Shown: in pieces, positions 3,948-48,873 of the stretch
Layout of the letters: each line of letters opens with the position of its first letter
How positions within the stretch are numbered: position 1 is the stretch's first letter
Source of the DNA: an archaeon
GTDB taxonomy: Archaea; Nanobdellota; Nanobdellia; Woesearchaeales; UBA9642
NCBI GenBank assembly: GCA_020057295.1
Contig: JAGVGF010000002.1
Coordinates: 128,001 to 192,000, forward strand
DNA: 64,000 nucleotides
Direction of reading: 5' to 3'
Translations under genes and position numbers: made by a program
Notes under the pieces: generated by a model
The model's database searches: none
Told to the model about the DNA's origin: nothing
The model's input: the letters and a program-made list of their open reading frames with translations, nothing else

Positions 3948-3987
3948 TCGTGCTGTATATTGTTTTGAAGATTTAGATGATAAAAAT

Positions 3988-6900: not shown

Positions 6901-9900
6901 TCAAATAAAGGTGCAACTGAGTACGCTCAAAATTTTAAATGTACTTGGGAAGATGATGGGTCTAAAGCATTATTTGTTTGGGTAAATAATGGTGTAACTT
7001 ATCTAACCTCCGGATCATATACGAAAGCTACGAGTACATTTTCAAATCCTAATTGGACTTCTGGAACGCAAATTGTTGCAAATGGTGCAGGAGCACTTAG
7101 ATCTGCATATCTTGTTTCCAATCCTGCATCAAATAGTGTATTTTTAACATATACTGATGGTGCAAGAGATGGTGGATGTTCATTATGGACTGGCACGACT
7201 TGGGATGGTTCAGGATGTAATAGTGCAACAGTATTTGAAACAACCGGTCCAAATGTTGGAGTAGCATGGTTAGTTTTTGATTGGTTTAGAAATCCTCCTC
7301 CTCAACCAGAAATAACAATAATAACTCCAACAAATTCAATTGGTTATATAAATTATACTGGAATAACAAATCCTAGTTCAACAAGTATTGCGTGGGATAA
7401 TGGAACTACTGCTCTTCCTCCGCCTGGCGCTTCTGCTCCAATTACTGGAGTAGAATTCCCTTCTGCTGAATATGTAAAGATAACTTCAAGTAATGACATA
7501 AGACATATAACAACTGTTACAGGAACTGCTGGAAGATATGCTTATCAAAGTTTTAATTTTACTGTTACTGAATCAACAGTAAATATGCAATCAATAATTG
7601 TAACTCATGAAGGTTATGCCACTCAAACAACAAGTCTTACTGCAAGTCAATTTTATATTTATGGATATAATTGGAGTTCAGATTCGTATGTTTTATTAAA
7701 AACAGTATTTGCAAGTTCAGTTGATGTTACTAGTGAAGTAACTATTGATGCAGGATTTAATGATTTTGTTAGAAATAGACAAATGTATGTTCTTGTTCAG
7801 GGAAGTTTTGCAATAGGTGTTGGAGCAAATGCTAGAGCTGATATAAACACAGACTATATGGGTTTAACAGTAGAAACTATTCCAATGCTTTCACAAAATA
7901 TTACTGTGAATGCTTCCGCAATTGACGATGATGGTATAAGTAAATGTGAATGGATTTTCTATAATTCTACAAATGGTAATCCAAATAGTTTAATAGGAAT
8001 GATAAATACTTTTGGAGATTATTATTATAATTTTAGTTCTATATCAGGAGTTCCTGATGGATATTATAATTTAACTGTATTTTGTAATGATACATTAAGC
8101 GCAAGAACAAATGAATCTGTATATGTTTATATAGATTCAACTCCTCCAGCAATAATATTATATAATCCTACAAACAATTCTAATATCACTGTAAACTATG
8201 CATTGTTTTCTTGGAATGCGACAGATATATTATATGCTAATTTAGTTTGTAATTTAACAATTGATGGAACTGTCAGAGCGACAAATGTTGTATCTGCACA
8301 TGCAGAAAATATTAGTAGAAATATTACAAGTATTACTGATGGAACACACTACTGGAACGTCACGTGTAGAGATGACGCTGGAAATAGGAATATTTCTCAA
8401 ACCTGGAGATTTGATTCTGATACTATAGGACCTGCTGTGACTCTTAATAGTCCAAGCGCCTCATCTTACACTAATAAAAATCCTTTAGATTTGAATTTCA
8501 CTGCAACAGATTCACATACGATTGTTAATTGTTCATTATATCTTGACGGATCATTAAATCAAACAATAACTTCTGTTACTAGCGGCATTATGACTAATTT
8601 TACATTTACAAATTTAAATCAGGGAGTTCACAATTGGAATGTTAGTTGTTATGATAGCTTTGGATTACGTGGAAATTCAACAAGTAGAAATTTCACTTAT
8701 GATACGATATTGCCTACTGTGTATTTAAATATTTCAACTGGATACATTTTCAATGGAACGATTCCAATATTAAATTATACTGTAATTGATAATATTGATT
8801 CTAATCTAACATGTAATATTACTGTTAATAGTGTTATAGAACTTGCAAATATTGCATCAACAAATAATACTTTAATATCAAGATCAGTTCCATTACTTGA
8901 TGGATTTAAACAATGGAATGTTACATGTGTTGATGATGCAGGAAACGTTAACACTTCTGAAACAAGAATTTTTCAAGTCATAGGCGGTCCTCTTGTAACG
9001 CTTCAAACTCCTGTTAATGGAACGATAGGTAATGGAACAAATATAACTTTAAAATATTACGCTCAAGATGGGAATGGAGTTGCAAATTGCTCGTTATATA
9101 TTAATGATGTTCTAAATCAAACAAATACTAGCATTACAAGTGGAGCAAATAATACTTTTTTAATTTCAAGTCTTAATGAAGGAAGATATAATTGGAGCGT
9201 AACATGTTACGATACTAATGGTTATCCGGGTTATTCTAGTACTTGGCAAATTATTTCAGACAGATCAAAACCTTCAATAAATTTAAGTGCTCCAATTTCA
9301 GGACAGGTATTAACTACTACGCCAACATATTTTAATTTCACACTCTTAGATTTTTATTCCACAAATGCTACGTGTAATTTGACTATTGATGGAATTGTAA
9401 ATGCCGGTAATCAAAATTTTGTAGCATTAAATGGTTCTGTAACTACTAGATCTCAAACTGTAACAAATGGATTGCATTATTGGAATGTTACATGTATAGA
9501 TTTAGGATATAATTTTAACACTTCTTTAACGCGGAATTTTACTATAAATGTTACATTCCCTGTAAGTGTTACTGTAGTTGCTGACAAGACCCAATACCAA
9601 GAAGGAGAAATTGCTCAAATAAATATTACCACAAAAAATGAAACTTCAGGAAATATTGCTACAAATATAACTTTGGATTATATATACACCAATAATACTT
9701 ATACTGATATTCCTTGGTGGAATACTTCTTGGAATTATAGAAAGTCCATTGTTTTGAATCAAACAAATAATACTTTAATCTCTAGTAAAGCAATACTTGT
9801 AAATGTTACAGTTCCATATGGCACAATTACTAATTGTCATGAACTTCGAGTAGTTTCTGATTCAGATTTAAGTTTTGTAGATTCTAATGTTATAACTGGT

Positions 9901-12900
9901 GATGATGTTACATTTTGCTACATTTATTTTATTGGAACAGTTACTGCAAATGCAGTTAATGAAAATAATTATCACGTGTATTACGGAAATGTAAATGCAT
10001 CATATTCAACGCAAAGCGTGTATGTTTCCGGAAATTATATTTTAGAACAATTGTTTTATGATGATTTTTCAACTGCATCAATAACTTCAAATTGGACTGT
10101 AAGTTCTGGATGGGACGCATCTAATGCAAATCCCTTAGCTGGAGATCACGCTCATATTCAAGGAACTGTTACAGATGCGACGATTAGACTTACAAATTCT
10201 TTAAATTTGTTAAATTATGATTTTGTAAATCTATCATTTACGTGGGGTATAGATGCATCATGGGATGCTGGTGCTCCTCTTGATTATTTACGTTATGATT
10301 ATAGTAATGATTCTGCAAGTACGTGGACTGGAAGCGGAGGAGTAGGAACATTAAACGGGAACGGTGTTGCTCAAACACAAACAGTAAATACTCAATTAAA
10401 TAGTTCTTATAAGATAAATGGATTCAATTTAAGATTTAGAGCAACAACAAATAATGCAAATGAAGATGGGGGATTTGATACTTTTAATATTACAGGACAG
10501 TATGCTGTACAATCAAGTGTAAATTCAAATGTCGGAAATCATCAAGTTTGGATTTTAAGAACTACAAATGTTACAAATTCTTCTGGACAGTATAATACAA
10601 CATTTACCACTCTTGGAAGAACTTATGGAAATTATAGTGCTGTAGGATACGCTTATCCTCCAAATGTTAATTTACGTCAAGGATGGGGATATGATTATTT
10701 TGATTTAATTGCGGATCAATTTGGTCCTGTGATTACTTTGTTATATCCAACTAATGCAACAACTCTTAGAAGTGGAAATATCACTTTCAATTATACTGCT
10801 GTAGATTATGCAAATAATGTGGCAAATTGTTCATTATACATAAACGGAGTATTTAATCAATCAAATTCTACAATAAATGAATCTATAACTAACAATTTTA
10901 CTTCTGAATTATTCGAAGGACAATATTATTGGTTGATTAATTGCTTTGACTCTTTAGGTTCACAAACAAATTCTTCAAGATACAATTTAACAATAGATGA
11001 TACTCCTCCAATAGTTAGTCTAATAAGTCCAAATAATTCTGTTCTTCCATCTGGAACAATTACTTTTAACTTTAATGTAACTGATAATTTTGATACTACG
11101 ATTTTGTGTAATATCACAGTTGATTCTGGAAATTACTCAAAACTTTTCAACACTTCAAATGGTGTAAATTCTACAACAATTGCAAATATTACTGATGGAT
11201 TGCATTATTGGAATATGACTTGTTATGATAATATAAATAATAATGCGACTAGCACAACATTAAATTTCACAACAGCAACAATTCCTATTGTTACTTTGCA
11301 TTCTCCGGCCACAAATTATGGCGTGAATAGTACAAATATTACTTTGTATTATAATTTATCCTCTGTCAATGTTGATAATTGTTCGTTAGTATTGAATGGT
11401 CAATACAATCAAACAGTAAATAGTACACAGATTCCATTTAAGGCAAATGATGGACAAAATGTATTCAATTTAACTGGAATGGGTTACGGAATATACAATT
11501 GGACAGTAATATGCTTTGACTCAAATAATTTTAACGGAACCGATACGACAAGAATTTTCCATTTAGATAATGCTTTCCCTATAATTAATTTATCATATCC
11601 TGCAAATAATCAAACAATATTTAGCAGAAATATTAATTTCACATTCAACGTTACAGATATTGATGATGTATTAGTATGTAATTTAACAATTGATGGTGTT
11701 GTGAATAAAAGCAATCAAAATATTTCTTCTAATAATTCTGGGAAAGTAGGAAGTATATATGTTACTGGACTTTCTGTAACTAATCATAATTGGAGCGTTG
11801 CATGTGCTGACAATGTAGGATTTTCTACTACTTCTGTAACTTGGAATTTTACCATTGACTCAAGTGTAAGCATTTCTCTTACGAGCCCCGCAAATAATTT
11901 CCTATCTAGTTCTGGAAGCGTAAATTTCATTTATGTTCCAAGCAGTCCTGCGGATTTTGATTTAGGATTCTGTGATTTATACATTAATGATTCAATATAT
12001 GCAACGCATGTAGCTTTAACTTCAGGATCACCAGACACTTTTGCTGTCGCTGGATTAGGAGAAGGTAGGTATAATTGGTCGATTAATTGTACTGATAGCG
12101 TCGGAAAAAATGGTGCTAGTGAAACAAGAAATTTCACGCTTGATATGACTGGTCCGATTGTAACAAATTATTATCCTAATGGAAATGTCTTTACAAATAG
12201 TTCAGTATTTTTCAATTGGTCTGCAACAGATAATTATGATGCAAACATGAGCTGTACAATACTTGTTAATGGAACAGCGCAATCACCAATTGTTTATTCG
12301 TTAAATGGAACTGTAACGAATCATACTTATTCAAATTTCCGTGACGGATTATTATTCTGGAATGTTACATGTACTGATGATGCAGGAAATAATGGAACAA
12401 GCAGTTTGAAAAATTTCACTGTACAAGAACCTCCAGCAATTACTTTAAATTCTCCCTCTAACAATAATCGAACTAAAAATAGGAATATAACGTTTTATTA
12501 CACTCCGACAGATAATTCTGGAAATATAAGTTCATGTAGCATAATATTTGACGGTTTATTAAATCAGACAAATTCGACACAATTAGCTTCAGGTGTGCAG
12601 AGAAACTTTACAATAAATAATATTGCTGCTGGAAATCATACCTGGTCAATTAACTGTACTGACCCTTCAGGAAATATAGGATCATCAATAAATTATACTT
12701 TCTATATAGATCTATATGCTCCAACAATTGTTTTAGATAGACCTATTGAGGGAGATTTCTTAAATACAAATGATGTATTCTTTAACTGGACAGCAACAGA
12801 TTATTCTGGAACAACAATAAATTGTTCATTATATGTTGATAATTTATTCAAAAATTCAACAGCTAGAACGAGCGGATCATCATTTAATATAACAGCATAT

Positions 12901-15900
12901 AATCTAACTGATGGACCACATAATTGGAGTGTTAATTGTTCTGATGATTTAGCCAATTATTTAATGAGTGAAACAAGAAATTTCACAATAAATCAACCTG
13001 ACTTATACATAGATAATAATAGAATAATTTTCAATAACACAAATCCTGATGAAAATAGCACTATTAACATAACTGTGAACGTTACGAATATAGGTGGAGT
13101 TCCCGCAAACAATATTCTTGTAGAGTTTTGGGATGGACTTCCAAATGTGGGAACATATATTGGTAATGATACAGGAACTGTTGCTGTAAATGGTTCAAGA
13201 ATATATTCAGTATTATGGAATATTACATTAGGATATCATAATATTTGGGTTATTGTTGATCCATATAATACTCAAGGAGAACTTAATGAATCTAATAATA
13301 ATGCCACGAAAAACATTTCCATATTAAGATCTATAATTAATAGTCCTTTAAATGGTACTGCATCTATAAATTCTAATGTTACAATAAATTTCACGCTACA
13401 AGATTTCACTACAGGCAATATTAATTATTCAGTATTTGTTGATGGATCCTTTAATGGACAGAATGGTTCAGTGGTTGATAATGTATCAACGTTACTAAAT
13501 GTTACATTAACGCAAGGGTTACATTATATACAAATTCAAGCTAGAGATTTACTTGGCAGATATAAAAATTCCACCAGAGTATATATCACTATAGATTATA
13601 CTGCACCACAACCTGTTATTAACACAGTAAATTATACATGGTACAATTATAGTATTCCTCAAATAAATATTAGCGCAACAGATAATGTTTATACAAACAT
13701 TTCTTACAGAGTTTACGTTAATGGTACAGAAAATATTAATGGCACAATAACCAATGGAACTTCAAAGTTTGTAAACCTATCAACTTTAAGCGATGGATAT
13801 TATGTATTAATAATGGAAGCATGGGATTTCTTGAATAATACTGCTAACAGTACACCAAAATATATCTATGTCGACACAACAAAGCCCACAATTACATTAA
13901 ATAGCCCGGGTAATAATGCAAATATTACAAATAGAACTGTACAATTAAACTTTACAGTTAATGATAATTTAGCAAATAATGCTACATGCAATATCACATT
14001 AGATGGTTTGATAGTTAGTTTTCCTACTGTAAACATTAGTCAGCCATATATTTATACAGCGAACAATTTGATTGAGGGAACACATTATTGGAATGTTACA
14101 TGTATGGATCAAGCACTAAATATTAACACAAGTGTTACAAATTCTTTTAACGTTTATATTGCTCCAAATATTACTCTTGTAAGTCCATCTAACAATCAAT
14201 GGAGTAATACAGCAAATAACACTTTCTATTTCAATGTCAGTGATGAAACAGGATTAGAGAATTGTTCAATAATATTAAATGGCGTGATTAATCAGACAAA
14301 AACTACTGCACAATTGGTAAACAACGGGACAAATAATTTTACAATTACGGAAATGATTTCTGGAAATCATACATGGAGCATTGAATGTTATGATAATACA
14401 TTATATCATACATATAGCATAAGCAGTAATAGAACATTGTACGTTGATTTAATTAGACCACAACCAAATATCGAAACACTAAATAATTCATGGTTTAATA
14501 CTGCCACTCCTTTGATAACATTTAATATCACAGATAATATGGCATTAACGATAAATTATACACTATTTGTTAATGGTTCCGGTAATACTAATGGTGTGGT
14601 TACAAATGGTTCAACAATTTCAGTAAATTTACAGCCATTACAAAATGGAACTTACTCAGTAATATTACAAGGCACTGATTTAGCAGGCAACGTTCAAAAT
14701 TCTACACCTATAATAATCTATATAGATACAATATTACCATCAATAAATTTAACATATCCCGCTAATGATACAAATATTACTGCAAGTTATACTAACTTAA
14801 ACTTTACACCATCAGACAATATGGCATCATACTTAATGTGTAATGTTACATTAGATGGAAATAATGTTGGCTTGAATATTAATGTAACTAATGGTCAAAA
14901 TCAGAATGTGAGCGTTTCATCAATTAATGGAGGATATCATTATTGGAATGTTACATGTATGGATCAAGCAGGTAATAAAAATACTAGTCAGACATTCAGA
15001 TTCTACATCCAAATGCCAGATTTGTATATAAACACTAGTTCAATATATTTTAGTAACAATAATCCTATAGAAAACGAAACAATAAATATCACAGCAACAA
15101 TATATAATATAGGAAATATTGATGCATTCAACTTCATAGCAGAGATACGTGCTATAAACCAGACAGGACCGATAGTAGCTAATGTTACATTAAATTTATC
15201 TGCAGGAAATTATACAAATATCACAGGAAGTTATATGTTACCAATAGGAGATACATCGTTCTATGTCTTAGTTGATACTCCTATAACAACAAACGGTTCA
15301 GTTCAAGAAGAAAATGAATCAAACAATAATGCAAGTAAAACAATTCATGTAGGATTATGGGAATATGTTGTGGGAACTACAATTGACAAACTGGCTTTAA
15401 TAAATAACTTATCAATATATGATTGGATAGTGAATAATGCTACAGGAAGCAATTTGTATGTTACAGATGCAGATTCAAATATTAACTGGTTTACACTACA
15501 AGCGCTAGGTAGAAACATATCGAACGGAACGTCAGGAACTGATTTCTACACATTTGACACAAAAATAAATTCTACAATACTCACAGATTCAGTGAATAGA
15601 ACATATACTTTAGGAGGACAGCCTATAGAAACTATAAATTACACAGTCTTTAGAAGATTTATTACCAACATTCCGATTGTTAATAGTACAAATAATACTA
15701 ATTTCAAAACAGGATTACTATGGGATACAGGAGATGGTGGAATAGCGTATAATGGAACACAAGATGTGGTTCTCATATCGAAAATAAGTAAATCGACGCA
15801 GGGATACAATGCTACTGTAGATTATGAATTAAGAGTGCCTGCAACACTCAGATCGTATAAGGGATCTGTTAATCAAGTAGTATTTTATGGAGAAATTAAT

Positions 15901-15903
15901 TAA
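3988..15903 (+). CDS. giant secreted glycoprotein/adhesin (~3970 aa): MG2-like, propeller-like, many Cys-containing Ig-like repeats, DUF2341-like, lectin-like, CARDB, C-terminal A/B-subunit domain
   Basis: ORF 3892..15903, likely start at 3988 or 4018 before the signal peptide; TDKSIYQIGE motif; repeated C-x-L-x-IDG...WNVTC-x-D units; PWWNTSWNYRK; PDLYI...E-N-ESNN CARDB motifs; dense NxS/T sequons; no C-terminal TM. Confidence 0.85.
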   Translation: MNNNKNFGNRMLMSVLFLLVILLSFSVHSVYAVKLQSELKDTNIILSLDDSKFNGVDLGENYELMMSLGNQNYKYFGGMIFPIIINTNGEGLYSFKLLNKSNQEILSEISVSKTFDCDKLSLNVAPSTKSSNNDVGTYSVGEEISIHLFEGQIALSNIPQFIIISIIAQNNSDKVYRLSGDITSKFIPSESGTYTVSLYCNSGAIYSKDIVVKSSDASSDVSMGNVSIIEPYTQNNDLVHSNIENNGANYSIKRITVKNSRNEVFIGDVKAYNIRSEAPVGIRQKILSLLSSNSGKEIIGKIEMDLNGVSGLENTKLSLNDVDSTSNTVLIESISKKNIEEKNTINLEGSIEGSIVDAYALDLSALSFTNGTLTKTAKGRVLWKCKDWNFAQQTCFGKWIEVMNIRPGEDYSFEVSPNDPGFIETGLATINTDKSIYQIGESAKISAVVLDTQGYLVSNATVNIMITTPGNTVYFFDNVAESKRGIYEIIFNHNDIIGNYTMQVSAYKNETNLGMTQYVNYSMISDFSVMEYYDFDIIRNIPITTDPFRKPLYAKILIHPLNENITNYNFTEVIPSDLLVIDAPGATISNAGNETHLTWTGLNGNVTLNYTTQPPLITPNLLILGKAFIEYVINSATYIFVEFRNWFIAVDPTVTRDQGLVVYADRTDDGFIKYRNWTGSTLQSEVNSGVDFGNRIAWLKFRCLVNREQCILVGSDTGADINFNVFYTNNWTWSTNTQLDGSSETSQSNIDLDCESLSGQCIVVYEDSTNNDAVFVYRIWNGTDISGINTVTITGGENNEIDWINLYPQKGTNNIGIAIQNDGGGVNTDTPAIYSAIWNGTNFTNWRTLTANSPADGTSRTFYRHYDCAWEGGTGYFGCFYANDTLNAILFDRFNGTNWNYMGRIFNTSGEPREISACGQEGLSSFNHSYIGLMFCDSANDLDGTIWNGTSLLKTTHAASPAQNTNAECGDSNKGATEYAQNFKCTWEDDGSKALFVWVNNGVTYLTSGSYTKATSTFSNPNWTSGTQIVANGAGALRSAYLVSNPASNSVFLTYTDGARDGGCSLWTGTTWDGSGCNSATVFETTGPNVGVAWLVFDWFRNPPPQPEITIITPTNSIGYINYTGITNPSSTSIAWDNGTTALPPPGASAPITGVEFPSAEYVKITSSNDIRHITTVTGTAGRYAYQSFNFTVTESTVNMQSIIVTHEGYATQTTSLTASQFYIYGYNWSSDSYVLLKTVFASSVDVTSEVTIDAGFNDFVRNRQMYVLVQGSFAIGVGANARADINTDYMGLTVETIPMLSQNITVNASAIDDDGISKCEWIFYNSTNGNPNSLIGMINTFGDYYYNFSSISGVPDGYYNLTVFCNDTLSARTNESVYVYIDSTPPAIILYNPTNNSNITVNYALFSWNATDILYANLVCNLTIDGTVRATNVVSAHAENISRNITSITDGTHYWNVTCRDDAGNRNISQTWRFDSDTIGPAVTLNSPSASSYTNKNPLDLNFTATDSHTIVNCSLYLDGSLNQTITSVTSGIMTNFTFTNLNQGVHNWNVSCYDSFGLRGNSTSRNFTYDTILPTVYLNISTGYIFNGTIPILNYTVIDNIDSNLTCNITVNSVIELANIASTNNTLISRSVPLLDGFKQWNVTCVDDAGNVNTSETRIFQVIGGPLVTLQTPVNGTIGNGTNITLKYYAQDGNGVANCSLYINDVLNQTNTSITSGANNTFLISSLNEGRYNWSVTCYDTNGYPGYSSTWQIISDRSKPSINLSAPISGQVLTTTPTYFNFTLLDFYSTNATCNLTIDGIVNAGNQNFVALNGSVTTRSQTVTNGLHYWNVTCIDLGYNFNTSLTRNFTINVTFPVSVTVVADKTQYQEGEIAQINITTKNETSGNIATNITLDYIYTNNTYTDIPWWNTSWNYRKSIVLNQTNNTLISSKAILVNVTVPYGTITNCHELRVVSDSDLSFVDSNVITGDDVTFCYIYFIGTVTANAVNENNYHVYYGNVNASYSTQSVYVSGNYILEQLFYDDFSTASITSNWTVSSGWDASNANPLAGDHAHIQGTVTDATIRLTNSLNLLNYDFVNLSFTWGIDASWDAGAPLDYLRYDYSNDSASTWTGSGGVGTLNGNGVAQTQTVNTQLNSSYKINGFNLRFRATTNNANEDGGFDTFNITGQYAVQSSVNSNVGNHQVWILRTTNVTNSSGQYNTTFTTLGRTYGNYSAVGYAYPPNVNLRQGWGYDYFDLIADQFGPVITLLYPTNATTLRSGNITFNYTAVDYANNVANCSLYINGVFNQSNSTINESITNNFTSELFEGQYYWLINCFDSLGSQTNSSRYNLTIDDTPPIVSLISPNNSVLPSGTITFNFNVTDNFDTTILCNITVDSGNYSKLFNTSNGVNSTTIANITDGLHYWNMTCYDNINNNATSTTLNFTTATIPIVTLHSPATNYGVNSTNITLYYNLSSVNVDNCSLVLNGQYNQTVNSTQIPFKANDGQNVFNLTGMGYGIYNWTVICFDSNNFNGTDTTRIFHLDNAFPIINLSYPANNQTIFSRNINFTFNVTDIDDVLVCNLTIDGVVNKSNQNISSNNSGKVGSIYVTGLSVTNHNWSVACADNVGFSTTSVTWNFTIDSSVSISLTSPANNFLSSSGSVNFIYVPSSPADFDLGFCDLYINDSIYATHVALTSGSPDTFAVAGLGEGRYNWSINCTDSVGKNGASETRNFTLDMTGPIVTNYYPNGNVFTNSSVFFNWSATDNYDANMSCTILVNGTAQSPIVYSLNGTVTNHTYSNFRDGLLFWNVTCTDDAGNNGTSSLKNFTVQEPPAITLNSPSNNNRTKNRNITFYYTPTDNSGNISSCSIIFDGLLNQTNSTQLASGVQRNFTINNIAAGNHTWSINCTDPSGNIGSSINYTFYIDLYAPTIVLDRPIEGDFLNTNDVFFNWTATDYSGTTINCSLYVDNLFKNSTARTSGSSFNITAYNLTDGPHNWSVNCSDDLANYLMSETRNFTINQPDLYIDNNRIIFNNTNPDENSTINITVNVTNIGGVPANNILVEFWDGLPNVGTYIGNDTGTVAVNGSRIYSVLWNITLGYHNIWVIVDPYNTQGELNESNNNATKNISILRSIINSPLNGTASINSNVTINFTLQDFTTGNINYSVFVDGSFNGQNGSVVDNVSTLLNVTLTQGLHYIQIQARDLLGRYKNSTRVYITIDYTAPQPVINTVNYTWYNYSIPQINISATDNVYTNISYRVYVNGTENINGTITNGTSKFVNLSTLSDGYYVLIMEAWDFLNNTANSTPKYIYVDTTKPTITLNSPGNNANITNRTVQLNFTVNDNLANNATCNITLDGLIVSFPTVNISQPYIYTANNLIEGTHYWNVTCMDQALNINTSVTNSFNVYIAPNITLVSPSNNQWSNTANNTFYFNVSDETGLENCSIILNGVINQTKTTAQLVNNGTNNFTITEMISGNHTWSIECYDNTLYHTYSISSNRTLYVDLIRPQPNIETLNNSWFNTATPLITFNITDNMALTINYTLFVNGSGNTNGVVTNGSTISVNLQPLQNGTYSVILQGTDLAGNVQNSTPIIIYIDTILPSINLTYPANDTNITASYTNLNFTPSDNMASYLMCNVTLDGNNVGLNINVTNGQNQNVSVSSINGGYHYWNVTCMDQAGNKNTSQTFRFYIQMPDLYINTSSIYFSNNNPIENETINITATIYNIGNIDAFNFIAEIRAINQTGPIVANVTLNLSAGNYTNITGSYMLPIGDTSFYVLVDTPITTNGSVQEENESNNNASKTIHVGLWEYVVGTTIDKLALINNLSIYDWIVNNATGSNLYVTDADSNINWFTLQALGRNISNGTSGTDFYTFDTKINSTILTDSVNRTYTLGGQPIETINYTVFRRFITNIPIVNSTNNTNFKTGLLWDTGDGGIAYNGTQDVVLISKISKSTQGYNATVDYELRVPATLRSYKGSVNQVVFYGEIN

Positions 15904-18900
15904 TGAATATACATTTGCCTGAGTATCGGAAGAAGAATATAATACTTGCTGAAACACTTAAGAATACATCTTTATTTGTATTCTTTGTGACTTTATTATT
16001 TTTAATAGTCACTCCCTCAGTTACAAGTATTCCGATGATGAGTTTTGACAAAAATTATTATGTAACAAATGATGTTGTTAGCATATTAACAAAAGATCCT
16101 TCTCCATTGACTATATCTGGTTCATTAACTCTTGAAGTTTCAATAAAGGAAGATACTAATTATTATTTTAAATATCTTGGATCTGTTAATGAGATTATAT
16201 CATTTATTCCCACACAGTCTGGGGAATATATTTTTAGATTATATAATGAAAATGGAAATTTAATTGATGAAAAGAGTTTCCTTGTCTATGATAAAAGTGT
16301 CGATTCGTGTGCAACTCATAAACTAGGATCTCAAATATTGATTGATTTAGAAGAATACGCTTTTGATTTAGGATCAAAACTTCCTTCGGAAATAGAATTA
16401 ATATATTCAAATGCATTGTCAACTAACAAAATAGTTTATAATGGCGGGATAACTCCACAGATATATTATACTCCTAGTATTATTGGAAAATACTCGTTAT
16501 ACGCTGACGGAATATATCTTGCTTGTTATGACATAATAGATGATTTCGCAATAGAAAATTCTAAGATAATACACTCTACAAATGAAAATTTAAACAATAT
16601 TACTTATTTAAATAATCAAATCAGTAATCAAACTAGCAATAGTATGAACAAAACTACTTTTATTAATGGATTAAATATTTCTCTTATCTCAAACCAGTAT
16701 GATTCAAAAAACACTTCTTCAATTGTTATAGATCTTAATAATTCGCTTATTCAGTCAGAAACAGGAAGATTAAAGAAAAAAATTATTCTATTCAAGATAA
16801 AAAATAGTCTAAACGAAAGTTTGAACGCTGATACTTTTGTTTATGAGAAAGAAAAAATCGTTGGTACAATTCAAAACACTAATTCAAATAACAAAGATTA
16901 CGCTTCGAATGTAAAAGATAATATTTTAGAAAACAATTTATTATTAAATACGAGGATTTCTGTTATTGATTATACTGCAAACACTTCAATTTCTAATAAT
17001 GCTTACACTCCTGATTTTCTCGTTATTAATGATACAAGCGCGAGTTTACAAAATGCATCACTTGACGCAGATATAGAATTTGTTTCTGGAAGTGTTAAGA
17101 AAATAAATTTCAAAAATTTGGAATATAAAGAAAATATGGAAGTAGGAGTTGATGAAGTTACTGAAAAATTATCTTCTAATAAATTATTGGAAAAATCAGA
17201 AAAAAAAGAGTTGAAAGCTTACGCTGTAAATCTTTATGATTTGAATTTTACTGCTGCTTCTTTTACAAGTATTGCTGTAGGAACAGAATTGTGGAAATGT
17301 AAAGATTGGAATTTTACGACACAATCATGCTTTGGAACATGGAGTAAATTAATGGATATTATTCCTGGTCAAGAATATAATGTAAGTTTATTCCCTGGAG
17401 ATCCAGGATTTATTGAAACATTTGATGTAAATGTAGCAATAGATATAGATATTCTTGCTCTTGATAATAACACTGTGGTTCTAGCATGGATAAAGAATGG
17501 AACAACCGTAACCGGAAATTTTGAAATATGGAATACTAATGGATCCATAATTGTTAATGATACAACATTTGATGCAGGAATGGATACTCAAAGTCGAGTT
17601 TCGCTTGATTTAATTAATACTAATGATTTTATAATTGCTTCAATTGATGGTTCAACAAATATTTCAAATTTCTATTTTTATAATCGTACAGGCAGTATGA
17701 TTCAAAGTGCAACAACAATTAGTGCTAATGTTGGAGATTTTAATGATTTATCTGTATGTCAATTGGGCGATAGATTTATTTATTCTTATATTGATGCAAA
17801 TCCTGCACAGTTTGATGGTTCATTTCAAATAGTGAATAACTCTGGAAATTTTATAGGTACAATAACTGATGTTGATACAACAGTTACAACAACTACTGCT
17901 CTACAAAACTTTGTATCTTGTGCTGCAATTAATATTACTAACTGGGTATATTTATACTATGATGTTACATCATCAGATGTAACACTTAATGCACGTACAA
18001 ATACTGGAACTAATGTTGTTCTAACTGATTTAAATGCTAATGTAGGTACAACATCACAAGTTGCCGTCGCAACATCAAGAAATGAATATATTGCGAATTT
18101 ATATTATAATTCCGTTGCTGCAACTCAAGATGTAATATTAAATATACGACAATTGAATGGCGCAGTTCTTACTAATATTGCAACAGTTACTCCTGATGCG
18201 ACAGCTGGCGCAAATATTCGTCTGGATATTGCAGAAATTGATGCTTTAGGAACCAGCTACTTTGTTCCGACGTGGTATGATGCAGGAGATACAACAATAA
18301 AAGCGGCAGTGTACAATGAAACCGGAGGACAAATAACTGCTCCATTTATTGTTACAACCACACCTAACACCGGATATAGAATTGTTGCAGTTGCAGGATA
18401 TAATTCTAATGCAGAACTCGGACTTTGCAATGGAACATTTGTAATTGCATATACAAATAGTAGTGGAAATGCCATATTTAATAAATATTTAATTAATGGA
18501 TCTCAATGGAATGGAATTTGTCCTGATGTAACGCCTCCAACTGTCAATCTAACGTATCCTTCAAATGATTCTATTGTCGAAAATAATAATATTTCATTTA
18601 ATTTCACAGTAATTGATGATAGAGATGTTGTACTCCCTAATTGTAGTTTATATACAAATTTCACAGGAAATTTCATAATTAACAAAACAATATATAATGT
18701 AACTTCTGGAATAGAAACATCAATTAATGTCACAAATATCGATGATGGAAAATATATTTGGAATATTAGATGTTATGATAATTCATCAAATAACGCTTTT
18801 GCCATAAATGCTCCAAACAATTTTACGTTGTATATTAACAAAAATATTCCCTCAATAACCAACCCTCTAATAAATAGAACTGTTTTAAATCAAAGTAATT

Positions 18901-21900
18901 ACGTGCAACTTAATGTGACAATTAGTGATAGTTTTGGAATAAGCAATGCATTATTAACGATGTTATATCCTAATGGTACAAAAATAAATTATACTCTTAG
19001 TAATTCTGGAAATAATTATTATTATAATTTTAATAATACTGTTCAATTAGGGATATATAACATTACTTTAGTTTGGGCAAATGACACTTTAGGACAATCA
19101 AATCAAAATAACACGTTGATTTTATCTTTTAATGTTACTGCAAGCCCTCCGTCGGATTTCAATCTTTTAGCCCCTACGAATGCAACAGTTTCCACTAATC
19201 TAATTCCGAATATGAATTGGCAGCAAACAACTGATGAAACATTTGCAAATTACACGTTAATTCTAGATAAGGATTCAACATTTGCAACTCCAGATTATAC
19301 TTATGCAATTTCTCCAATAACAAATACTTCTTACATATTAGGATTTGCACTTGATGTAAATTCTGTATATTATTGGAGAGTTATAGCATACGATATTTTT
19401 GGAAATAGTAAAAATTCAACAAACGATTTTATATACATCACAGATAACTCAGGCCCACTTATTACTCTAAACATTCCTGAAACTAATTCTTTTGTACTTA
19501 TGAGCAATGTGTTATTTAATTATACTCCGATTGATGCAAATACTATTTCGAATTGTACATTATATACAAATGCTACAGGAACATTTTCTCCAAACCAAAC
19601 AAATTTTACTATTGCAAATACTCTTCCTAATTATTTATCTATGAACTTAAATGACGGATATTATTTATGGAATATTTTATGTTTTGATCAAGTTGGAAAT
19701 TATAAATTTTCAAATAATAATTTTACATTAAAAATTGATACTACTCCTCCTAATGTTACAATACTAAATCCTCAAAATAATACTTATGAAAATAATACTA
19801 ACAATGTGTTATTTTATGGAAATGCAACAGACGTAATGACTGGTGTGGACAATTGTTCTCTAATAATAAATAACACTGTTAGACAAACCAAATCCGTAAC
19901 TGAAGGAATAGTTTTTAATTTTACAGAATTTGTTTCTAATGGTAATTATGTATGGAACATAAATTGTACAGATTCAAATGGATTTATTGGAAGTTCAGTT
20001 AATTATTTTATCAATGTAAGTGTCGTTGATACTAATCCTCCACTTATACAATTGAATACTCCGACAAACAATGAATATATTAATACCTCGACAATAATAT
20101 TTAATTATACTGTAGATGATGCCTCAGGAATAGAAAATTGTTCTATTTTTATAGGTGGAATATTAAATTCTACAAATTATACTGTTAGTAATCATCAAGA
20201 TAATTTATTTACTATTTCAGAATTTACTTTCGGAACAAAAAATTGGCGTATAGCGTGCTATGATAATACTACAGAAAGAAATTATCGTCTAAGTTCTACA
20301 AGAAATTTCATTGTAGATTTAACAAATCCTGTTGTGACATTAAATATTCCAGGAAATTCAACAACTCCCTTATATCTAAATTACTCGACTATAGAATTTA
20401 ATTATACTCCTAGTGATGCAAATCTTTATTCTTGCGCATTATATGCTAATTTTACAGGATCATTTATAGAAGAACAAATAAATTTAACTCCAACAAATTC
20501 TCAAAATAATTATTTTACTCAAACAATTAATGACGGTAATTATGCTTGGAATATTTTATGTACTGATTTATCATCAAGAAGTAGTTTTGCTTTACAAAAT
20601 TATTTAATATTAGTTGATACACATGCTCCTGATTACTCAAATATTAATGTTTCTCCATATTCTAATTCGCCGTATAATTCATCAAAAAAATATTTCTTTA
20701 ATATTACTTGGACGGATAATTTTGAAATTTCTCAAGTTATTTTTGAATCAGATATTGATTCGTATGCATTATATGGTATTTCTGGAAATTTAACAAATTA
20801 TACAATTAACAGTTCTGACTTAGGAAGTTCAAAAAATTATAGTATTAATTTTACTAATATTGCTGCAGGAAATTATGTTTATACATGGTATGCAATAGAT
20901 GCTGCAGGAAATTTAAATAAGACCGAGCTTTTAACTTACAATGTTTCGCAAGAAAATTCTAGTGTGAATTTATTAATTAATGGCTCAGATGCCAATTTTA
21001 GTATTAATGAAGGAAATTATGTTAATTTAACAGGAACATTATTAGTTCCATTAATAGGAGTAATAGATTTGTATGTGGGTGAATCATTAATAAATTCAGG
21101 AATTGCTCCGATTTATAATATTACATTATTTGAAAATCCGGGTATATATAATGTGACTGCATTTTATAATTATTCTCAAAATTATTCTTCAAGTTCTGAT
21201 ACACATTTTGTTATTGTGAGTGATATAAGTTCTCCGCTAATAACGTTAAATGTTCCCATAACTAATTCTCCAATAGCTTCAGGAGAAATAACTTTGCAGT
21301 ATATTGTGAATGATAAATCCGATATTGCTAATTGTAGTTTATATATCAATGGAACATTAAATCAAACAGATAATTCTATTACTAGAAATGTGACGCAATT
21401 CTTTGTAGTTTCCTTACCCCAAGGAAATTACACCTGGACTGTAGATTGTTATGATAATTCTTCAAACCATAATTACAATATTTCTACTACATGGATATTC
21501 AGGGCACTTGACGCATCAGTCATTAATCTAGTCGTGTCTCCATTAGAATCACAATATGAAATAGTAGAAAATGCTATAATCGAGATAAATACTACCGGGC
21601 AATTTAATGACACATTAAACACTAATTTTACAGCTGATATAATATATGGAAATACTTCCCTTCCTTGGTGGAATACGAGCTTTAAGTATAGAAAGAATCT
21701 GTTATTTACAGAAAATTATAATAATTCAAGAGATGTGACTATGGATGTAAATATAACAGGATTAAGCGCATTAATAAATAATTGTACTACTCAAACAAGA
21801 ATTGTCGAGATTGTTATATATAACGGAACGATAAATCAATCTATTATTCCATTTGAAATTCTTTCAGGAGATGATAGTAATAATTGTTTTGTAAGATTTA

Positions 21901-24356
21901 ATGTAAATATATCTGCACTTCAAAATAATCAAACAAGATATCTAATATACTATGATAATACAAGTACAACCTCTGCTACTCAAACAGTTCCATTAAAGGG
22001 AATAAATATTCAAAGAGATACTGTTTCTGCAACAGGAGCTACTCTTACTGTCGGCATTACTAGTGCAAATCGTAGTAAATCTTTCATTTTATTTACTTCA
22101 AGAGTTGGTTCAACAGGACCAAATCAACACGAGATAACCAGTGATATGCTTATTGATACTCAGATAAGATTCGAGAGATATCTTGGCACTACTGCTGCTA
22201 ATATTTATTGGCAATTAATAGAAGGTTCAGATATTAATGTTCAAAGAGGATTGACTTCTTTTATAGCTACAGACGCAAATATTAATGTAACTGTAAACTC
22301 TGTTAATTTATCAAATTCATTTTTGATAATTAATGGACGTGTTAATTCTGGAACCGCAGGTCAAGCACCTAGAGGAATATTTGAAGGACGATTTATTAAT
22401 TCAACAACAATTTCTCTATCAAGAGGAATTACGGGAACGGCAGCAATTGCGGGATGGCAAGTTGTTGAATGGTCTAAGACTAATGTTCAATCAAATAATT
22501 TAACTTTAACTGCTAATCCTGTTATTGTTAATATTAATCCTGTAGTTGTTAATAGATCTTTTTTAATAATATCTAGAACCACTACAGGAGATACTGGTGC
22601 AGATACCAATTATGTTTTAGGATATATAATAAATTCTACTGCAATAAATATTTCACGTGTTGGAACTACAGGTTCTACAGTTGTTACATGGTTTGTTGTT
22701 GAATTACCTAATGAATATTATATTCAATCAGGTCAAGTCTCTACAACAAATTCTGTAAACCAAGCAATAACTTCTGTGGATATGTCACAAACTTTTAATT
22801 CAGAATCTTGGTCTTCTACTCAGACAGGAACAACTTATACTAATGCAATGATGACTTCTTTTTTGACGAATTCTACTAATATGAATTATACAAAACAAAC
22901 CGCAGTAAATACAAATGTTATAGGATGGTTTGCAATACAATCAAGAGATCCACAATATTCTATAGATGATACTCATAAATTTATAACTCGAGAATCAAAT
23001 GTTACTGGAGCCCTCGGAACATATAATTTGGTTTGGAATACTGCTAATCAATCATTTGGAAATTATTCTGTTGTTGTGACAGCAACAAAAGCGAATTATA
23101 CTACCGCATATGATTATGGAACATTTGAATTAATACCTGATCAAACTCCCCCAAATGTTACTCTTTTAACTCCACTAAATGCTACGGTCTCTGGATCGGG
23201 ATATTTTAATTTTACTTATGTTCCATTTGATTTGACTCTCGCAAGTTGTACATTATATATGGATATAAACGGGATTTTTGGACCTCAAGCTACAAATCTT
23301 AGTCCAATAAATAATGCCTCAAACACTTTTTCTTCCATCTATGTTGGTGCGGGATTCTTTAATTGGAATATAAATTGTACTGATTTATATAATAATTCAG
23401 GATTCTCTCCTTATAATTATACTCTTAATATTACTGGACCAGACTTGGTTATTACAAGAGATGATATATGGTTTAGCAATGATTCGAGATTAGAATTTGG
23501 AAATATAACCTTATTTGCAAATATCACAAATCAAGGGTTGAGTCCAGCAAATAGATCATTCATTGTACAATTTTTTAGAGGAGATCCTGATACTACAGGA
23601 ATTCAAATCGGATCGAATATTACAATAATCAACATGACTGTCGGAGAAGTTATAACAATAAACACTACATATTTATTGACTTCTGGGTTAAATAATATTT
23701 TTGTGAAGTTGGATTCAAATAATTTATTAAATGAATCAGAAGAATCTAATAATAAAGCAAATAATAGTTTAAATATTGGACTATATCAATATTATTTTGG
23801 GAATGTGTCACGAAATTTTGTATTCGGATCTCCTTCTGGAAATTTAACTGTATTCTATTCAGAAGTTAATAGTACTCCTAATGGCTACTTATTTATAGCA
23901 GATGCAGATAGTGTCTTTTCGTTCGCAAATCTACAAGCATTGTCTAGAAATATAAATAATAATTCTGTAAATAATGATTTTTCTGATTTGGATATATCGT
24001 TGAATAGTACTGGATCTTCCGGCTCTATAAATGAAGTGTGGACCAATAATACAGATTCTCCTTTGCATGTTGATATAATTAATTTAACTTCAAAAATAAT
24101 AAACGATGTTCCTTTTATAAATAGCACTACGAATAGTAGTTTTGAAACAGGCATATTATGGGATACTAGTGATGATTTGTCATTAAACTTACAATATGAT
24201 CCCACAGATAAAGAAGATGTCGTATTTGTTACTAAAATATCGACACCAATGATTGGAAGTTATGGTACATACAATTACGAGTTGAAAATACCTTCCAACT
24301 TAAGATCTTATTCCGGTAGCGTTAATATGGTAACATTTTATTATGAATTGAAATAA
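15903..24356 (+). CDS. giant secreted glycoprotein/adhesin (2817 aa), paralog of the upstream gene, C-terminal A/B-subunit domain
   Basis: TAATG overlap with the upstream gene; signal peptide; shared LWKCKDWNF..Q.CFG.W and DPGFIET motifs; Ig repeats; PWWNTSFKYRK; CARDB; ends YELKIP...FYYELK. Confidence 0.85.
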   Translation: MNIHLPEYRKKNIILAETLKNTSLFVFFVTLLFLIVTPSVTSIPMMSFDKNYYVTNDVVSILTKDPSPLTISGSLTLEVSIKEDTNYYFKYLGSVNEIISFIPTQSGEYIFRLYNENGNLIDEKSFLVYDKSVDSCATHKLGSQILIDLEEYAFDLGSKLPSEIELIYSNALSTNKIVYNGGITPQIYYTPSIIGKYSLYADGIYLACYDIIDDFAIENSKIIHSTNENLNNITYLNNQISNQTSNSMNKTTFINGLNISLISNQYDSKNTSSIVIDLNNSLIQSETGRLKKKIILFKIKNSLNESLNADTFVYEKEKIVGTIQNTNSNNKDYASNVKDNILENNLLLNTRISVIDYTANTSISNNAYTPDFLVINDTSASLQNASLDADIEFVSGSVKKINFKNLEYKENMEVGVDEVTEKLSSNKLLEKSEKKELKAYAVNLYDLNFTAASFTSIAVGTELWKCKDWNFTTQSCFGTWSKLMDIIPGQEYNVSLFPGDPGFIETFDVNVAIDIDILALDNNTVVLAWIKNGTTVTGNFEIWNTNGSIIVNDTTFDAGMDTQSRVSLDLINTNDFIIASIDGSTNISNFYFYNRTGSMIQSATTISANVGDFNDLSVCQLGDRFIYSYIDANPAQFDGSFQIVNNSGNFIGTITDVDTTVTTTTALQNFVSCAAINITNWVYLYYDVTSSDVTLNARTNTGTNVVLTDLNANVGTTSQVAVATSRNEYIANLYYNSVAATQDVILNIRQLNGAVLTNIATVTPDATAGANIRLDIAEIDALGTSYFVPTWYDAGDTTIKAAVYNETGGQITAPFIVTTTPNTGYRIVAVAGYNSNAELGLCNGTFVIAYTNSSGNAIFNKYLINGSQWNGICPDVTPPTVNLTYPSNDSIVENNNISFNFTVIDDRDVVLPNCSLYTNFTGNFIINKTIYNVTSGIETSINVTNIDDGKYIWNIRCYDNSSNNAFAINAPNNFTLYINKNIPSITNPLINRTVLNQSNYVQLNVTISDSFGISNALLTMLYPNGTKINYTLSNSGNNYYYNFNNTVQLGIYNITLVWANDTLGQSNQNNTLILSFNVTASPPSDFNLLAPTNATVSTNLIPNMNWQQTTDETFANYTLILDKDSTFATPDYTYAISPITNTSYILGFALDVNSVYYWRVIAYDIFGNSKNSTNDFIYITDNSGPLITLNIPETNSFVLMSNVLFNYTPIDANTISNCTLYTNATGTFSPNQTNFTIANTLPNYLSMNLNDGYYLWNILCFDQVGNYKFSNNNFTLKIDTTPPNVTILNPQNNTYENNTNNVLFYGNATDVMTGVDNCSLIINNTVRQTKSVTEGIVFNFTEFVSNGNYVWNINCTDSNGFIGSSVNYFINVSVVDTNPPLIQLNTPTNNEYINTSTIIFNYTVDDASGIENCSIFIGGILNSTNYTVSNHQDNLFTISEFTFGTKNWRIACYDNTTERNYRLSSTRNFIVDLTNPVVTLNIPGNSTTPLYLNYSTIEFNYTPSDANLYSCALYANFTGSFIEEQINLTPTNSQNNYFTQTINDGNYAWNILCTDLSSRSSFALQNYLILVDTHAPDYSNINVSPYSNSPYNSSKKYFFNITWTDNFEISQVIFESDIDSYALYGISGNLTNYTINSSDLGSSKNYSINFTNIAAGNYVYTWYAIDAAGNLNKTELLTYNVSQENSSVNLLINGSDANFSINEGNYVNLTGTLLVPLIGVIDLYVGESLINSGIAPIYNITLFENPGIYNVTAFYNYSQNYSSSSDTHFVIVSDISSPLITLNVPITNSPIASGEITLQYIVNDKSDIANCSLYINGTLNQTDNSITRNVTQFFVVSLPQGNYTWTVDCYDNSSNHNYNISTTWIFRALDASVINLVVSPLESQYEIVENAIIEINTTGQFNDTLNTNFTADIIYGNTSLPWWNTSFKYRKNLLFTENYNNSRDVTMDVNITGLSALINNCTTQTRIVEIVIYNGTINQSIIPFEILSGDDSNNCFVRFNVNISALQNNQTRYLIYYDNTSTTSATQTVPLKGINIQRDTVSATGATLTVGITSANRSKSFILFTSRVGSTGPNQHEITSDMLIDTQIRFERYLGTTAANIYWQLIEGSDINVQRGLTSFIATDANINVTVNSVNLSNSFLIINGRVNSGTAGQAPRGIFEGRFINSTTISLSRGITGTAAIAGWQVVEWSKTNVQSNNLTLTANPVIVNINPVVVNRSFLIISRTTTGDTGADTNYVLGYIINSTAINISRVGTTGSTVVTWFVVELPNEYYIQSGQVSTTNSVNQAITSVDMSQTFNSESWSSTQTGTTYTNAMMTSFLTNSTNMNYTKQTAVNTNVIGWFAIQSRDPQYSIDDTHKFITRESNVTGALGTYNLVWNTANQSFGNYSVVVTATKANYTTAYDYGTFELIPDQTPPNVTLLTPLNATVSGSGYFNFTYVPFDLTLASCTLYMDINGIFGPQATNLSPINNASNTFSSIYVGAGFFNWNINCTDLYNNSGFSPYNYTLNITGPDLVITRDDIWFSNDSRLEFGNITLFANITNQGLSPANRSFIVQFFRGDPDTTGIQIGSNITIINMTVGEVITINTTYLLTSGLNNIFVKLDSNNLLNESEESNNKANNSLNIGLYQYYFGNVSRNFVFGSPSGNLTVFYSEVNSTPNGYLFIADADSVFSFANLQALSRNINNNSVNNDFSDLDISLNSTGSSGSINEVWTNNTDSPLHVDIINLTSKIINDVPFINSTTNSSFETGILWDTSDDLSLNLQYDPTDKEDVVFVTKISTPMIGSYGTYNYELKIPSNLRSYSGSVNMVTFYYELK

Positions 24357-24513: not shown

Positions 24514-25683
24514 ATGTTTGAATTATTCAAAAAGACGGACGAAGAAAAAAATTTAGATAAAAATGCGGATAAGCAAAAATTAGTAATGAGTAGTTCTTCA
24601 GATACCGCTATGGCATCTTTAGATCCTCCTTCAACATTGCCTGAATTAGCGAAAGACTTGTACGAGAAAGAAGAGGAAAAGAAATCAACTGTCAATGAAC
24701 CTGTTGAATCTGTAAAACTTTCCGAATCAAAGATTCCCAAAATTTCTATGAACAATATTCCTAAAATTACCTTTCCTACTGTCTCATTAGAACCGAACAA
24801 AGATAACGTTCCACAGTTAGATATGGATCTTATAAAATCACACACTGTTCCTAGAGAAGAACATAGAATAATAACTAAACCATTATCTTCACAGACAAGT
24901 CAAGCAAATAATTATGTTGATTCAACAGATTCTTTCTTATCTTTACTAAACAACAAAATTGAGGGAGGATTTTTTAAAGAATTCCAAGATTTTATTGTAC
25001 AGAATACTCTTAATGATACTTCAAAGAGAAATATATTGGAGGACTTATTGGGCAAAGATTTAGTCGAAAAAATGGTCTTATATCATAGTACTAGAGATTC
25101 TGAATTGCCGTTTTATTTATCAAACAATGAATTAACAGCTACTACGAGACATAAATTTGAAGAATTACAAAATTTAGAACATTCATGGATTAGCACAAAA
25201 CAAAAATTAGATATATTAAAAAAATTAAACAACACATTTGAAGTAGATATAAAATTAAAATCCGAAGAATTAAAAGGCCTACTAAAAGAAACACTTAAGA
25301 GATCAGACGGTGTTTCTCCAAGTGTTAATACACAAAATATTTCTACGAATTCAAACACCATGAAAAATGCGATAGATGTAGTAAATAATAATCAAGATAC
25401 TACTGATGTTCATAAAAATGCTTTTAGTATAATGACTTACGCTGTTGATCCTTCAAAATACTTCTATATGCACGATGGAAGAGTTTTAAAATCCTTGTTT
25501 GATTTGGTTGATGCTTTGAAAAATATTGACGACAATACTTTCTATCATCATGTGAATACTCAACGCAATGATTTTTCTAACTGGATAAATGGTGTATTTG
25601 AGCATCATATTTTGGCAGAACACATAAAAAATATTAGAAATAAACATGAATTATTAGAATTCTTCAAAAATAATACTTATTAA
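24514..25683 (+). CDS. cytoplasmic coiled-coil protein with C-terminal DUF5752-like domain
   Basis: C-terminal YFYMHDGRVLKSLFDLVDAL...FYHHVNTQRNDFSNWINGVF; MFELFKK N-terminus. Confidence 0.75.
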   Translation: MFELFKKTDEEKNLDKNADKQKLVMSSSSDTAMASLDPPSTLPELAKDLYEKEEEKKSTVNEPVESVKLSESKIPKISMNNIPKITFPTVSLEPNKDNVPQLDMDLIKSHTVPREEHRIITKPLSSQTSQANNYVDSTDSFLSLLNNKIEGGFFKEFQDFIVQNTLNDTSKRNILEDLLGKDLVEKMVLYHSTRDSELPFYLSNNELTATTRHKFEELQNLEHSWISTKQKLDILKKLNNTFEVDIKLKSEELKGLLKETLKRSDGVSPSVNTQNISTNSNTMKNAIDVVNNNQDTTDVHKNAFSIMTYAVDPSKYFYMHDGRVLKSLFDLVDALKNIDDNTFYHHVNTQRNDFSNWINGVFEHHILAEHIKNIRNKHELLEFFKNNTY

Positions 25684-31011: not shown

Positions 31012-31180
31012 GATTTAAGCAAAATGTTTTTTGTTAACGTTTTCGCGTAAGAAAACGATAAAAAATACAATAAATAAGCTAACAATCACAAATTAACTGT
31101 CAAGAATTGCTTGGAAATCTCGAAGGTGGAGACAATGTTCAAAGTAGATGTCTCTATGCACTTTTGAGGGTTGTGGATTT

Positions 31181-48872: not shown

Positions 48873-48873
48873 A

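Follow-up and report, generated by a model that had tools for sequence, protein, structure and literature searches.

The window analysed here, a stretch of 64,000 nucleotides from a Woesearchaeales archaeon (GenBank assembly GCA_020057295.1, contig JAGVGF010000002.1, positions 128,001 to 192,000 of the forward strand), encodes two very large surface proteins, giants 1 and 2, which are followed by a group of small secreted proteins designated A and B (A/B). Profile comparisons and structure models indicate that the C-terminal domain (CTD) of the giants, by which we mean their arm-less tail domain resembling the A/B core, is a true homologue of that core which lacks both the whole N-terminal arm and the disulfide. 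The module shared by these proteins is confined to archaea of the Woesearchaeota type (DPANN), with neither a Pfam family nor a solved structural neighbour. In our estimation, the chances are about even that the CTD docks the giant adhesins to an A/B-based surface assembly.

Giant surface protein 1 is encoded by an open reading frame (ORF) of 4003 amino acids (aa) on the plus strand (3892-15903) and contains MG2, Big_7, Big_13 and CARDB repeats, with a last CARDB domain and the CTD at its end (Pfam E-values: Big_13, 5.4e-35; Big_7, 6.7e-14; CARDB, 5.5e-10; MG2, 6.2e-7). It bears 246 N-x-S/T sequons. The only hydrophobic 19-mer of the protein is its N-terminal signal-like region (residues 38-56) and no C-terminal transmembrane (TM) segment is present, in agreement with an earlier sequence-only reading of this DNA, which had described the giant as lacking a TM anchor. 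The last CARDB domain (residues 3709-3815; 15016-15336, plus strand) scores 39.8 bits in Pfam against a cut-off of 22.7 and is joined directly to the CTD (residues 3821-4003, 183 residues; 15352-15900, plus strand), which profiles and AlphaFold2 (AF2) models depict as an arm-less, cysteine-free copy of the A/B core. The segment 15352-15903 closes with the stop codon of giant 1, and its translation is the string that the sequence-only reading had quoted. The idea that the tail is a separate gene or an annotation artefact was ruled out, as the CARDB-CTD junction is continuous and has been kept in some 100 homologues.

Giant surface protein 2 (2817 aa; ORF at 15903-24356, plus strand) follows immediately, its ATG overlapping the stop codon of giant 1 (15901-15903) by one base. 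Its last ~195 residues form a second CTD (23757-24353, plus strand) with 37% identity to that of giant 1 (BLASTP E 3e-34). CTD-bearing giants in tandem were seen at many related loci too. In the genome from which the window comes (1.2 Mb, six contigs, 100% complete by marker genes; hereafter the own genome), strong matches of the CTD profile are confined to the two giants, with a weak one to an A gene (E 7.2e-5). Two near-invariant motifs, T-G-[IL]-L-W-D and D-Y-E-x-R-V-P, are specific to the CTD and lie in giant 1 at 15706-15726 and 15820-15840; at the corresponding places A/B have F-x-E-V-L-L-x-D and Y-D-F-Q-M-x-V. The CTD motifs mark a conserved feature that is peculiar to the tails of the giants.

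Downstream of the giants, six small genes on the plus strand encode proteins of ~240-260 aa, three of type A and three of type B. In gene order, these ORFs are A subunit 1 (26001-26786; signal peptide, PxGP arm and core), B subunit 1 (26931-27662), B subunit 2 (28493-29269), A subunit 2 (29698-30414), A subunit 3 (31782-32498) and B subunit 3 (32498-33253). The A/B proteins start with a cleavable-looking signal peptide, with alanine at position -1, after which [ILV]-P-x-G-P follows. In mature B subunit 1, the N-terminal arm comprises residues 1-43 (27003-27131, plus strand), in which PxGP is followed by a G-T-I-T-T-I-T-L segment; according to the AF2 model and a hidden Markov model (HMM) of the arm, it has no counterpart in the CTD. 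Within the arm, P-x-G-P is invariant and the strand-like segment reaches 2.40 bits. Cysteines C120 and C182 are invariant in the six A/B proteins of the window, and the CTD of giant 1 has none. When small genes of this type stand as adjacent pairs, A precedes B in 28 of 32 pairs, including the two of the window. Small genes of helix-turn-helix (HTH) type precede giant 1 (3285-3947) and sit between the A-B pairs (27964-28500 and 31148-31780); the first has no Pfam match, and the others are Sigma70_r4/HTH_23-like and ArsR-type by Pfam. The HTH genes lying between the A-B pairs suggest that alternative subunit pairs may be regulated separately.

The relationship of the tail to A/B was established by profile comparison. 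BLASTP of the tail against B (26931-27662) recovers the first 58 residues only (36% identity, E 3e-5). Aligned with hhalign, the two tails of the window already matched the six A/B proteins (96.1%, E 2.8e-9), with tail column 9 placed on A/B column 68, at the W strand. The sequence-only reading had proposed that the tail aligns colinearly with the B core from the W-x-x-Y-x-G strand onwards, and had named a profile-profile alignment of the last ~185 aa against A/B as a check. Such an alignment, with 101 CARDB+tail sequences on one side and 121 A/B sequences on the other, showed significant homology over 178 columns (98.95%, E 9.9e-18). A tail-only HMM likewise matched all six A/B proteins of the window at 24-33 bits, the match always starting at the W-x-x-Y-x-G strand, so that both methods bear the proposal out. 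The deep profile alignment extends nine columns further towards the N-terminus, where it pairs the end of CARDB with the strand-like segment of the arm, an extension that is uncertain. Control alignments with an unrelated secreted family of the same window, which is also rich in N, T and S, reached 27.5% (through the CARDB part only) and 3.4%; composition is thus not the cause of the match between CTD and A/B.

The absence of the N-terminal extension from the tail, also claimed in the sequence-only reading, was found to be general. An HMM built from the arm alone (B residues 1-43) found A/B ORFs in 75 of 77 cases and CTD-bearing ORFs in 0 of 110, at an independent E-value (iE) below 1e-3. As the CTD does not have the arm, composed of P-x-G-P and G-x-[VI]-T-x-[ILV]-x-[LF], it is a truncated variant and not a full member of the A/B module family. 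Searches of Pfam and NCBIfam with A, B and the CTD returned sub-threshold noise only, and no Pfam family was shared among 121 family members. A sequence-profile search of the PDB gave nothing significant (best E 0.63), and the ESM Atlas contained only the family's own unnamed archaeal clusters. In the literature, full-text searches covering main texts, PMC11606122 included, found no description of this family.

An A/B-like domain was also detected in a membrane protein encoded upstream of the giants. This protein of 1297 aa (G000:C2:123632-127525, equivalent to L082:11632-15525) is a two-TM ATPase of the DUF87/HerA-FtsK type; its gene ends 475 bases before the window and lies ~4 kb upstream of giant 1. 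A basic N-terminus, placed inside the cell, and a TM helix come first. The A/B-like domain then occupies residues 50-237 on the outside (hhalign 95.8%, E 7.6e-9); it has the arm from the strand-like segment onwards and is without the P-x-G-P half. Next come a CarboxypepD_reg-like domain, a further part of the ectodomain with 11 sequons, and the second TM helix, and the protein ends with the cytoplasmic DUF87/HerA-FtsK-type ATPase and C-terminal tetratricopeptide repeats. Of 18 genomes sampled from the same family, 17 have the ATPase, and its ectodomain matched the A/B profile in five of five relatives. In five of five more distant genomes, it is encoded on the same strand ~2-30 kb upstream of CTD giants, a common contig being deduced from the coordinates. 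With the ATPase upstream in relatives and A/B downstream, the recurrent gene order is ATPase, giant(s), A, B. The locus therefore presents the module in three settings: with the full arm in the free A/B proteins, with the distal, strand-like half in the ATPase, and with no arm in the giants. The ATPase is a candidate for the base or the motor of the system.

Several further observations concern this ATPase. A TM-plus-ATPase module (G000:C4:35295-37202) with 44% identity to it over residues 380-1016 was found on another contig, inside an open frame of 8055 aa, and a similar frame of 8189 aa containing such a module exists in a distant genome; it would be uncommon for a giant protein to include a HerA-type ATPase of its own. 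A motif Y-x-H-V-N-x-x-K/R-N-D-F-x-N-W, which gives weak DUF5752 matches, recurs in several small, apparently cytoplasmic proteins dispersed over the locus (2007-2525, 24514-25683 and L082:15588-15998), and it could be recognized by eye in the cytoplasmic tail of the ATPase as well. The small proteins with this motif may be cytoplasmic partners of the system.

Structure models were used to compare the A/B core with the CTD. The AF2 model of B (27003-27659, with residue 1 taken as M instead of L), calculated from an alignment of 121 sequences, has a pLDDT of 94.4 and a pTM of 0.88, and that of CARDB+CTD, from 101 sequences, a pLDDT of 93.3 and a pTM of 0.85. Both contain ~12 strands plus two to three short helices. 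In the B core, strands at residues 44-49, 53-58, 64-70, 77-82 and 92-94 are followed by two helices and seven strands, and the CTD has the same order of elements. In the CARDB+CTD model, the last CARDB strand runs almost straight into the W strand. The sole part of the CTD modelled with low confidence, at model residues 131-150 (pLDDT 69 and 63), is the beta-hairpin following the W strand (TTIDKLALINNLSIYDWIVN; 15376-15435, plus strand). Conservation within the CTD is also lowest in this hairpin (1.54 bits, vs 2.49 for the remainder), while the equivalent region of A/B reaches 2.63 bits vs 2.07. When the B model was compared with the PDB by Foldseek, no hit was obtained at E<=0.001 (best E 1.0, TM-score below 0.2), and among viral models no neighbour was found (best E 0.46). 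The CARDB+CTD model retrieved the CARDB domain of PDB entry 3idu (E 1.5e-6, TMt 0.87), and its remaining matches were to CARDB and Ig domains, through the CARDB part. The likeness to this CARDB of Pyrococcus furiosus PF1109 thus concerns only the domain preceding the CTD, and not the CTD itself.

These models bear on a donor-strand (arm) exchange mechanism, according to which A/B would be pilins, the CTD an acceptor-only domain at the fibre tip receiving the arm of A or B, and the ATPase copy of the module the base. The three architectures of the locus differ exactly in the arm (full, half or none), as this mechanism would have it. The arm is long (43 aa), conserved and without regular secondary structure in the monomer model, which is typical of inter-subunit straps, and the only low-confidence region of the CTD is the hairpin beside the W strand. 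Chaperone-free donor-strand filaments are reported from archaea (10.1101/2024.12.30.630787; 10.1101/2022.04.26.489512; PMC9245690). However, residues 1-43 are placed confidently on their own core (pLDDT 86-91), and DSSP assigns them neither helix nor strand. As an arm without a strand adds none to the sheet, its loss leaves no missing strand in the CTD model; the CTD is modelled as a complete domain, and no strand-shaped gap is evident. The relaxed conservation of the hairpin in the CTD family also argues against exchange, as does the fold, which resembles neither chaperone-usher pilins nor TasA-type subunits nor any other PDB chain.

Covariation and complex prediction added little to this question. 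In a mean-field analysis of 336 A/B sequences (Meff 280), arm-core pairs were weak, and contacts in cis and in trans are not separable. The pairs T29-K45, S36-K54, T32-Y194 and A37-Q197 scored 1.2-1.45 and ranked ~30-55, near the noise level; their register is parallel, and a loop of 8 residues would be too short to allow this in cis, so that to this extent they favour exchange. A complex prediction of CARDB+CTD with the B arm (residues 1-46) gave a score of 0.02 against a mark of 0.32 and neither supports nor opposes an interaction. A profile search of 1.84 billion representative sequences found 1243 family members at E<=0.001, of which 150 were listed. Among these 150 relatives, 27 are proteins of 350-2359 aa, each with an A-type domain as its C-terminal end; their profile matches begin at positions 13-45, so that all of the arm or its distal part is retained (four of the 27 were looked at individually). 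In these 27 relatives, an internal arm precedes the A-type end, so that the arm need not be a free N-terminus, a further point against donor-strand exchange. On balance, this mechanism appears rather unlikely.

The distribution of the module was examined starting from 210 relatives of the CARDB+tail piece collected from genome contigs, from which 78 loci were kept. These Woesearchaeota-type loci contain 106 CTDs, and 102 of them end within two residues of the end of the ORF. A CARDB tail motif, E.[ND]E.N[ND], precedes 84 of 104 tails; the rest mostly have a degenerate version of it, an Ig domain taking its place in a few. Most carriers are very large, and their open frames reach >3600 aa within the fetched flanks. 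A/B genes occur at 31 of the 78 loci and, where at least 5 kb is available downstream of the last CTD, A/B lie downstream on the same strand at 21 of 40 loci. In a sample of 201 genomes of the phylum, each at least 90% complete, A/B were found in 57 and the CTD in 44: both together in 44, A/B only in 13, the CTD only in none, and neither in 144. Three of the 44 genomes with a CTD (G053, G135 and G144) have a weak A/B match (E 1e-16 to 1e-20), which could be another form of the module. The gene set of ATPase, giant, A and B is thus conserved but patchily distributed.

This pattern also bears on the idea that the module is not a polymer subunit, and is instead a lectin-like or envelope-binding anchor for a common envelope component or a host-surface glycan. 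The giants would then be kept on the cell by that component and not by A/B. The module does stand on very different carriers and is always terminal. The CTD has invariant surface-type motifs distinct from those of A/B, and the proteins carrying the module are all rich in N-glycosylation sequons (4-6 per 100 aa), which would fit such a function. The top non-significant Foldseek rows for the B model include legume lectins, a galectin and jelly-roll capsid proteins, but these are at chance level (E at least 1). On the other hand, the strict pairing of A then B, with multiple pairs per genome, makes these proteins look more like building blocks than soluble binders. Moreover, a self-sufficient anchor would not require A/B, and giants with a CTD but no A/B were found in 0 of 44 genomes. 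We therefore consider an anchor of this kind unlikely.

A role in neither assembly nor binding was also envisaged, the CTD being then a degenerate A/B relic whose only use is to cap the fold of the last CARDB domain or to stabilise it. Its loss of the arm and of both conserved cysteines, the relaxed hairpin and its tight packing on CARDB (pTM 0.85) could be understood in this way. Yet, the hairpin apart, conservation of the CTD is high (2.49 bits), and some T, G, W, E and P positions are invariant. In many genera, and in 102 of 106 cases overall, the CTD has stayed at the very C-terminus, and it co-occurs with A/B, which makes a mere relic very improbable.

Taken together, the shared module, its strictly terminal placement, giants that have no other anchor, the conserved gene order and the one-sided co-occurrence lead to the docking of the giants on an A/B-based assembly as the favoured reading. 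The module would be a homotypic assembly or docking domain, through which A and B would come together on the surface as a heteromeric fibre or lattice, and the copy in the ATPase would tie this A-B assembly to the membrane. The giants would be held on the cell by their CTD, which would take a subunit-like place in the A-B assembly; as the CTD offers a neighbouring subunit nothing in return, it would stand at an end or at the periphery. Polymerisation of A/B, binding of the CTD to A/B and any polarity of the assembly are what we infer from these features.

Several points weigh against docking. The hairpin is well conserved in A/B (2.63 bits), but no part of the CTD is conserved less, and it is therefore unlikely to be a maintained binding site. 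The CTD's own motifs, T-G-I/L-L-W-D and D-Y-E-x-R-V-P, could serve a ligand other than A/B. Among the loci with enough flank, 19 of 40 show no A/B within the 10-kb flank. Moreover, the sampled genomes are related and not independent, so that the co-occurrence table overstates the support. Finally, no canonical surface-layer (S-layer) gene was found for comparison, as S_layer_N (PF05123) and S-layer (PF07752) have 0 matches in the own genome (positive controls were detected). A/B themselves match no canonical S-layer family; a lattice role for them stays compatible with this.

As to the sequence-only reading, it had interpreted the tail as an acceptor-only, FimH-like pilin domain that attaches the adhesin to a fibre. 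The homology, the absence of the arm and the lack of an anchor have stood, and the tail is genomically tied to A/B. The comparison with a pilin has not fared as well, since the fold is unlike that of chaperone-usher pilins, no usher or PapD was found, the arm contains no strand and the CTD is complete without it. A wider proposal would combine all parts into an undescribed organelle, with the ATPase module at its base, a shaft of A and B assembled by chaperone-free exchange of the 43-residue arm, and giants of 2800-8000 aa as arm-less, acceptor-only tip. Such an organelle seems quite improbable.

Other surface proteins are encoded in the same island. A second small secreted family, 'C', consists of proteins of ~310 aa ending in GF[IV]IFSAEAP, with stand-alone copies at 33255-34184, 44046-44978 and 47928-48872. 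The C-terminal ~285 aa of a protein of 918 aa (45074-47830) form a family C domain with 40% identity. Family C thus parallels the logic of A/B, with a free subunit and a large protein ending in a subunit domain; no homology between family C and A/B was detected by hhalign. Five further proteins have, as read from their sequences, a C-terminal TM segment and a cytoplasmic tail (38914-41904, L082:8420-11596, 35292-36926, 41951-43786 on the minus strand, and 48856-50088), in contrast to the anchor-less giants and A/B. The C-terminal-TM proteins of 996 aa and 1058 aa look paralogous.

The life of DPANN archaea is spent in attachment to other cells, and their genomes code for enormous surface proteins, which raises the question of how giants without an anchor are held on the cell. 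With one module common to all parts of the system, concrete and clonable pieces of ~20-25 kDa are at hand for studies of the contact surface. If arm exchange were true, these proteins would form a further independently evolved, chaperone-free strand-exchange polymer in archaea, with a tip-adhesin logic convergent with that of FimH. If the organelle described above existed, an ATPase rooted in a polymer could couple energy, or the transport of DNA or protein, to the host-contact structure of symbionts.

Among known systems, the SLH and CWB2 modules offer a first comparison. They are terminal modules, shared by the main surface-layer protein and many accessory surface proteins, that bind a cell-wall polymer and keep all these proteins on the cell. 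The likeness lies in one terminal module being common to several surface proteins; we know of no equivalent of this wall-polymer binding in DPANN archaea, and neither SLH nor CWB2 showed sequence similarity to A, B or the CTD in Pfam and NCBIfam. In the type V pili of Bacteroidia (FimA/Mfa), a single fold is common to the tip, stalk and anchor proteins, and what distinguishes them is the terminal strand that is kept. This strand is bound in cis in the precursor and exchanged in trans on assembly, which involves lipoprotein export, proteolytic removal of the N-terminal strand and a C-terminal donor. None of this is evident here, and no fold similarity was found.

The nearest archaeal precedents are the chaperone-free donor-strand filaments of archaea. 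These filaments include cannulae (CanA, of the TasA superfamily; 10.1101/2024.12.30.630787) as well as bundling pili (AbpA) and threads (10.1101/2022.04.26.489512; PMC9245690). Their subunits are reported to be small, glycosylated, beta-rich proteins exported by Sec, which an N-terminal strand links into a polymer with no chaperone involved, and A/B may be likened to such subunits. Unlike in the TasA superfamily, Peptidase_M73 (PF12389) is absent from the own genome (a B. subtilis control was positive), and neither Pfam nor PDB sequence searches nor Foldseek relate TasA or the archaeal filaments to A, B or the CTD. We know of no counterpart in these filaments of the conserved A-B pair and module-bearing giants found here.

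The nearest functional analogy is with the two-domain tip adhesins of chaperone-usher pili. In FimH and PapG, an adhesive part is followed by a C-terminal subunit-like domain without the N-terminal extension, so that these proteins can only be the terminal unit and have no anchor of their own. The CTD of the giants is likewise subunit-like, lacks the N-terminal extension of the subunits and comes without a membrane anchor. The differences are substantial, however. The organism here is an archaeon without an outer membrane, and PapD_N (PF00345) and usher (PF00577) have 0 matches in the own genome (an E. coli control was positive). The fold common to A/B and the CTD is not an incomplete Ig fold and has no PDB neighbour, from which it also follows that it is not the fold of chaperone-usher pilins. 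The arm has 43 residues and is not modelled as a strand, and the adhesive part consists of ~3800 aa of Ig and CARDB repeats. What is known from other systems is thus the logic of attachment by a subunit domain, and what is new here is a module without prior description that is coupled to a membrane ATPase.

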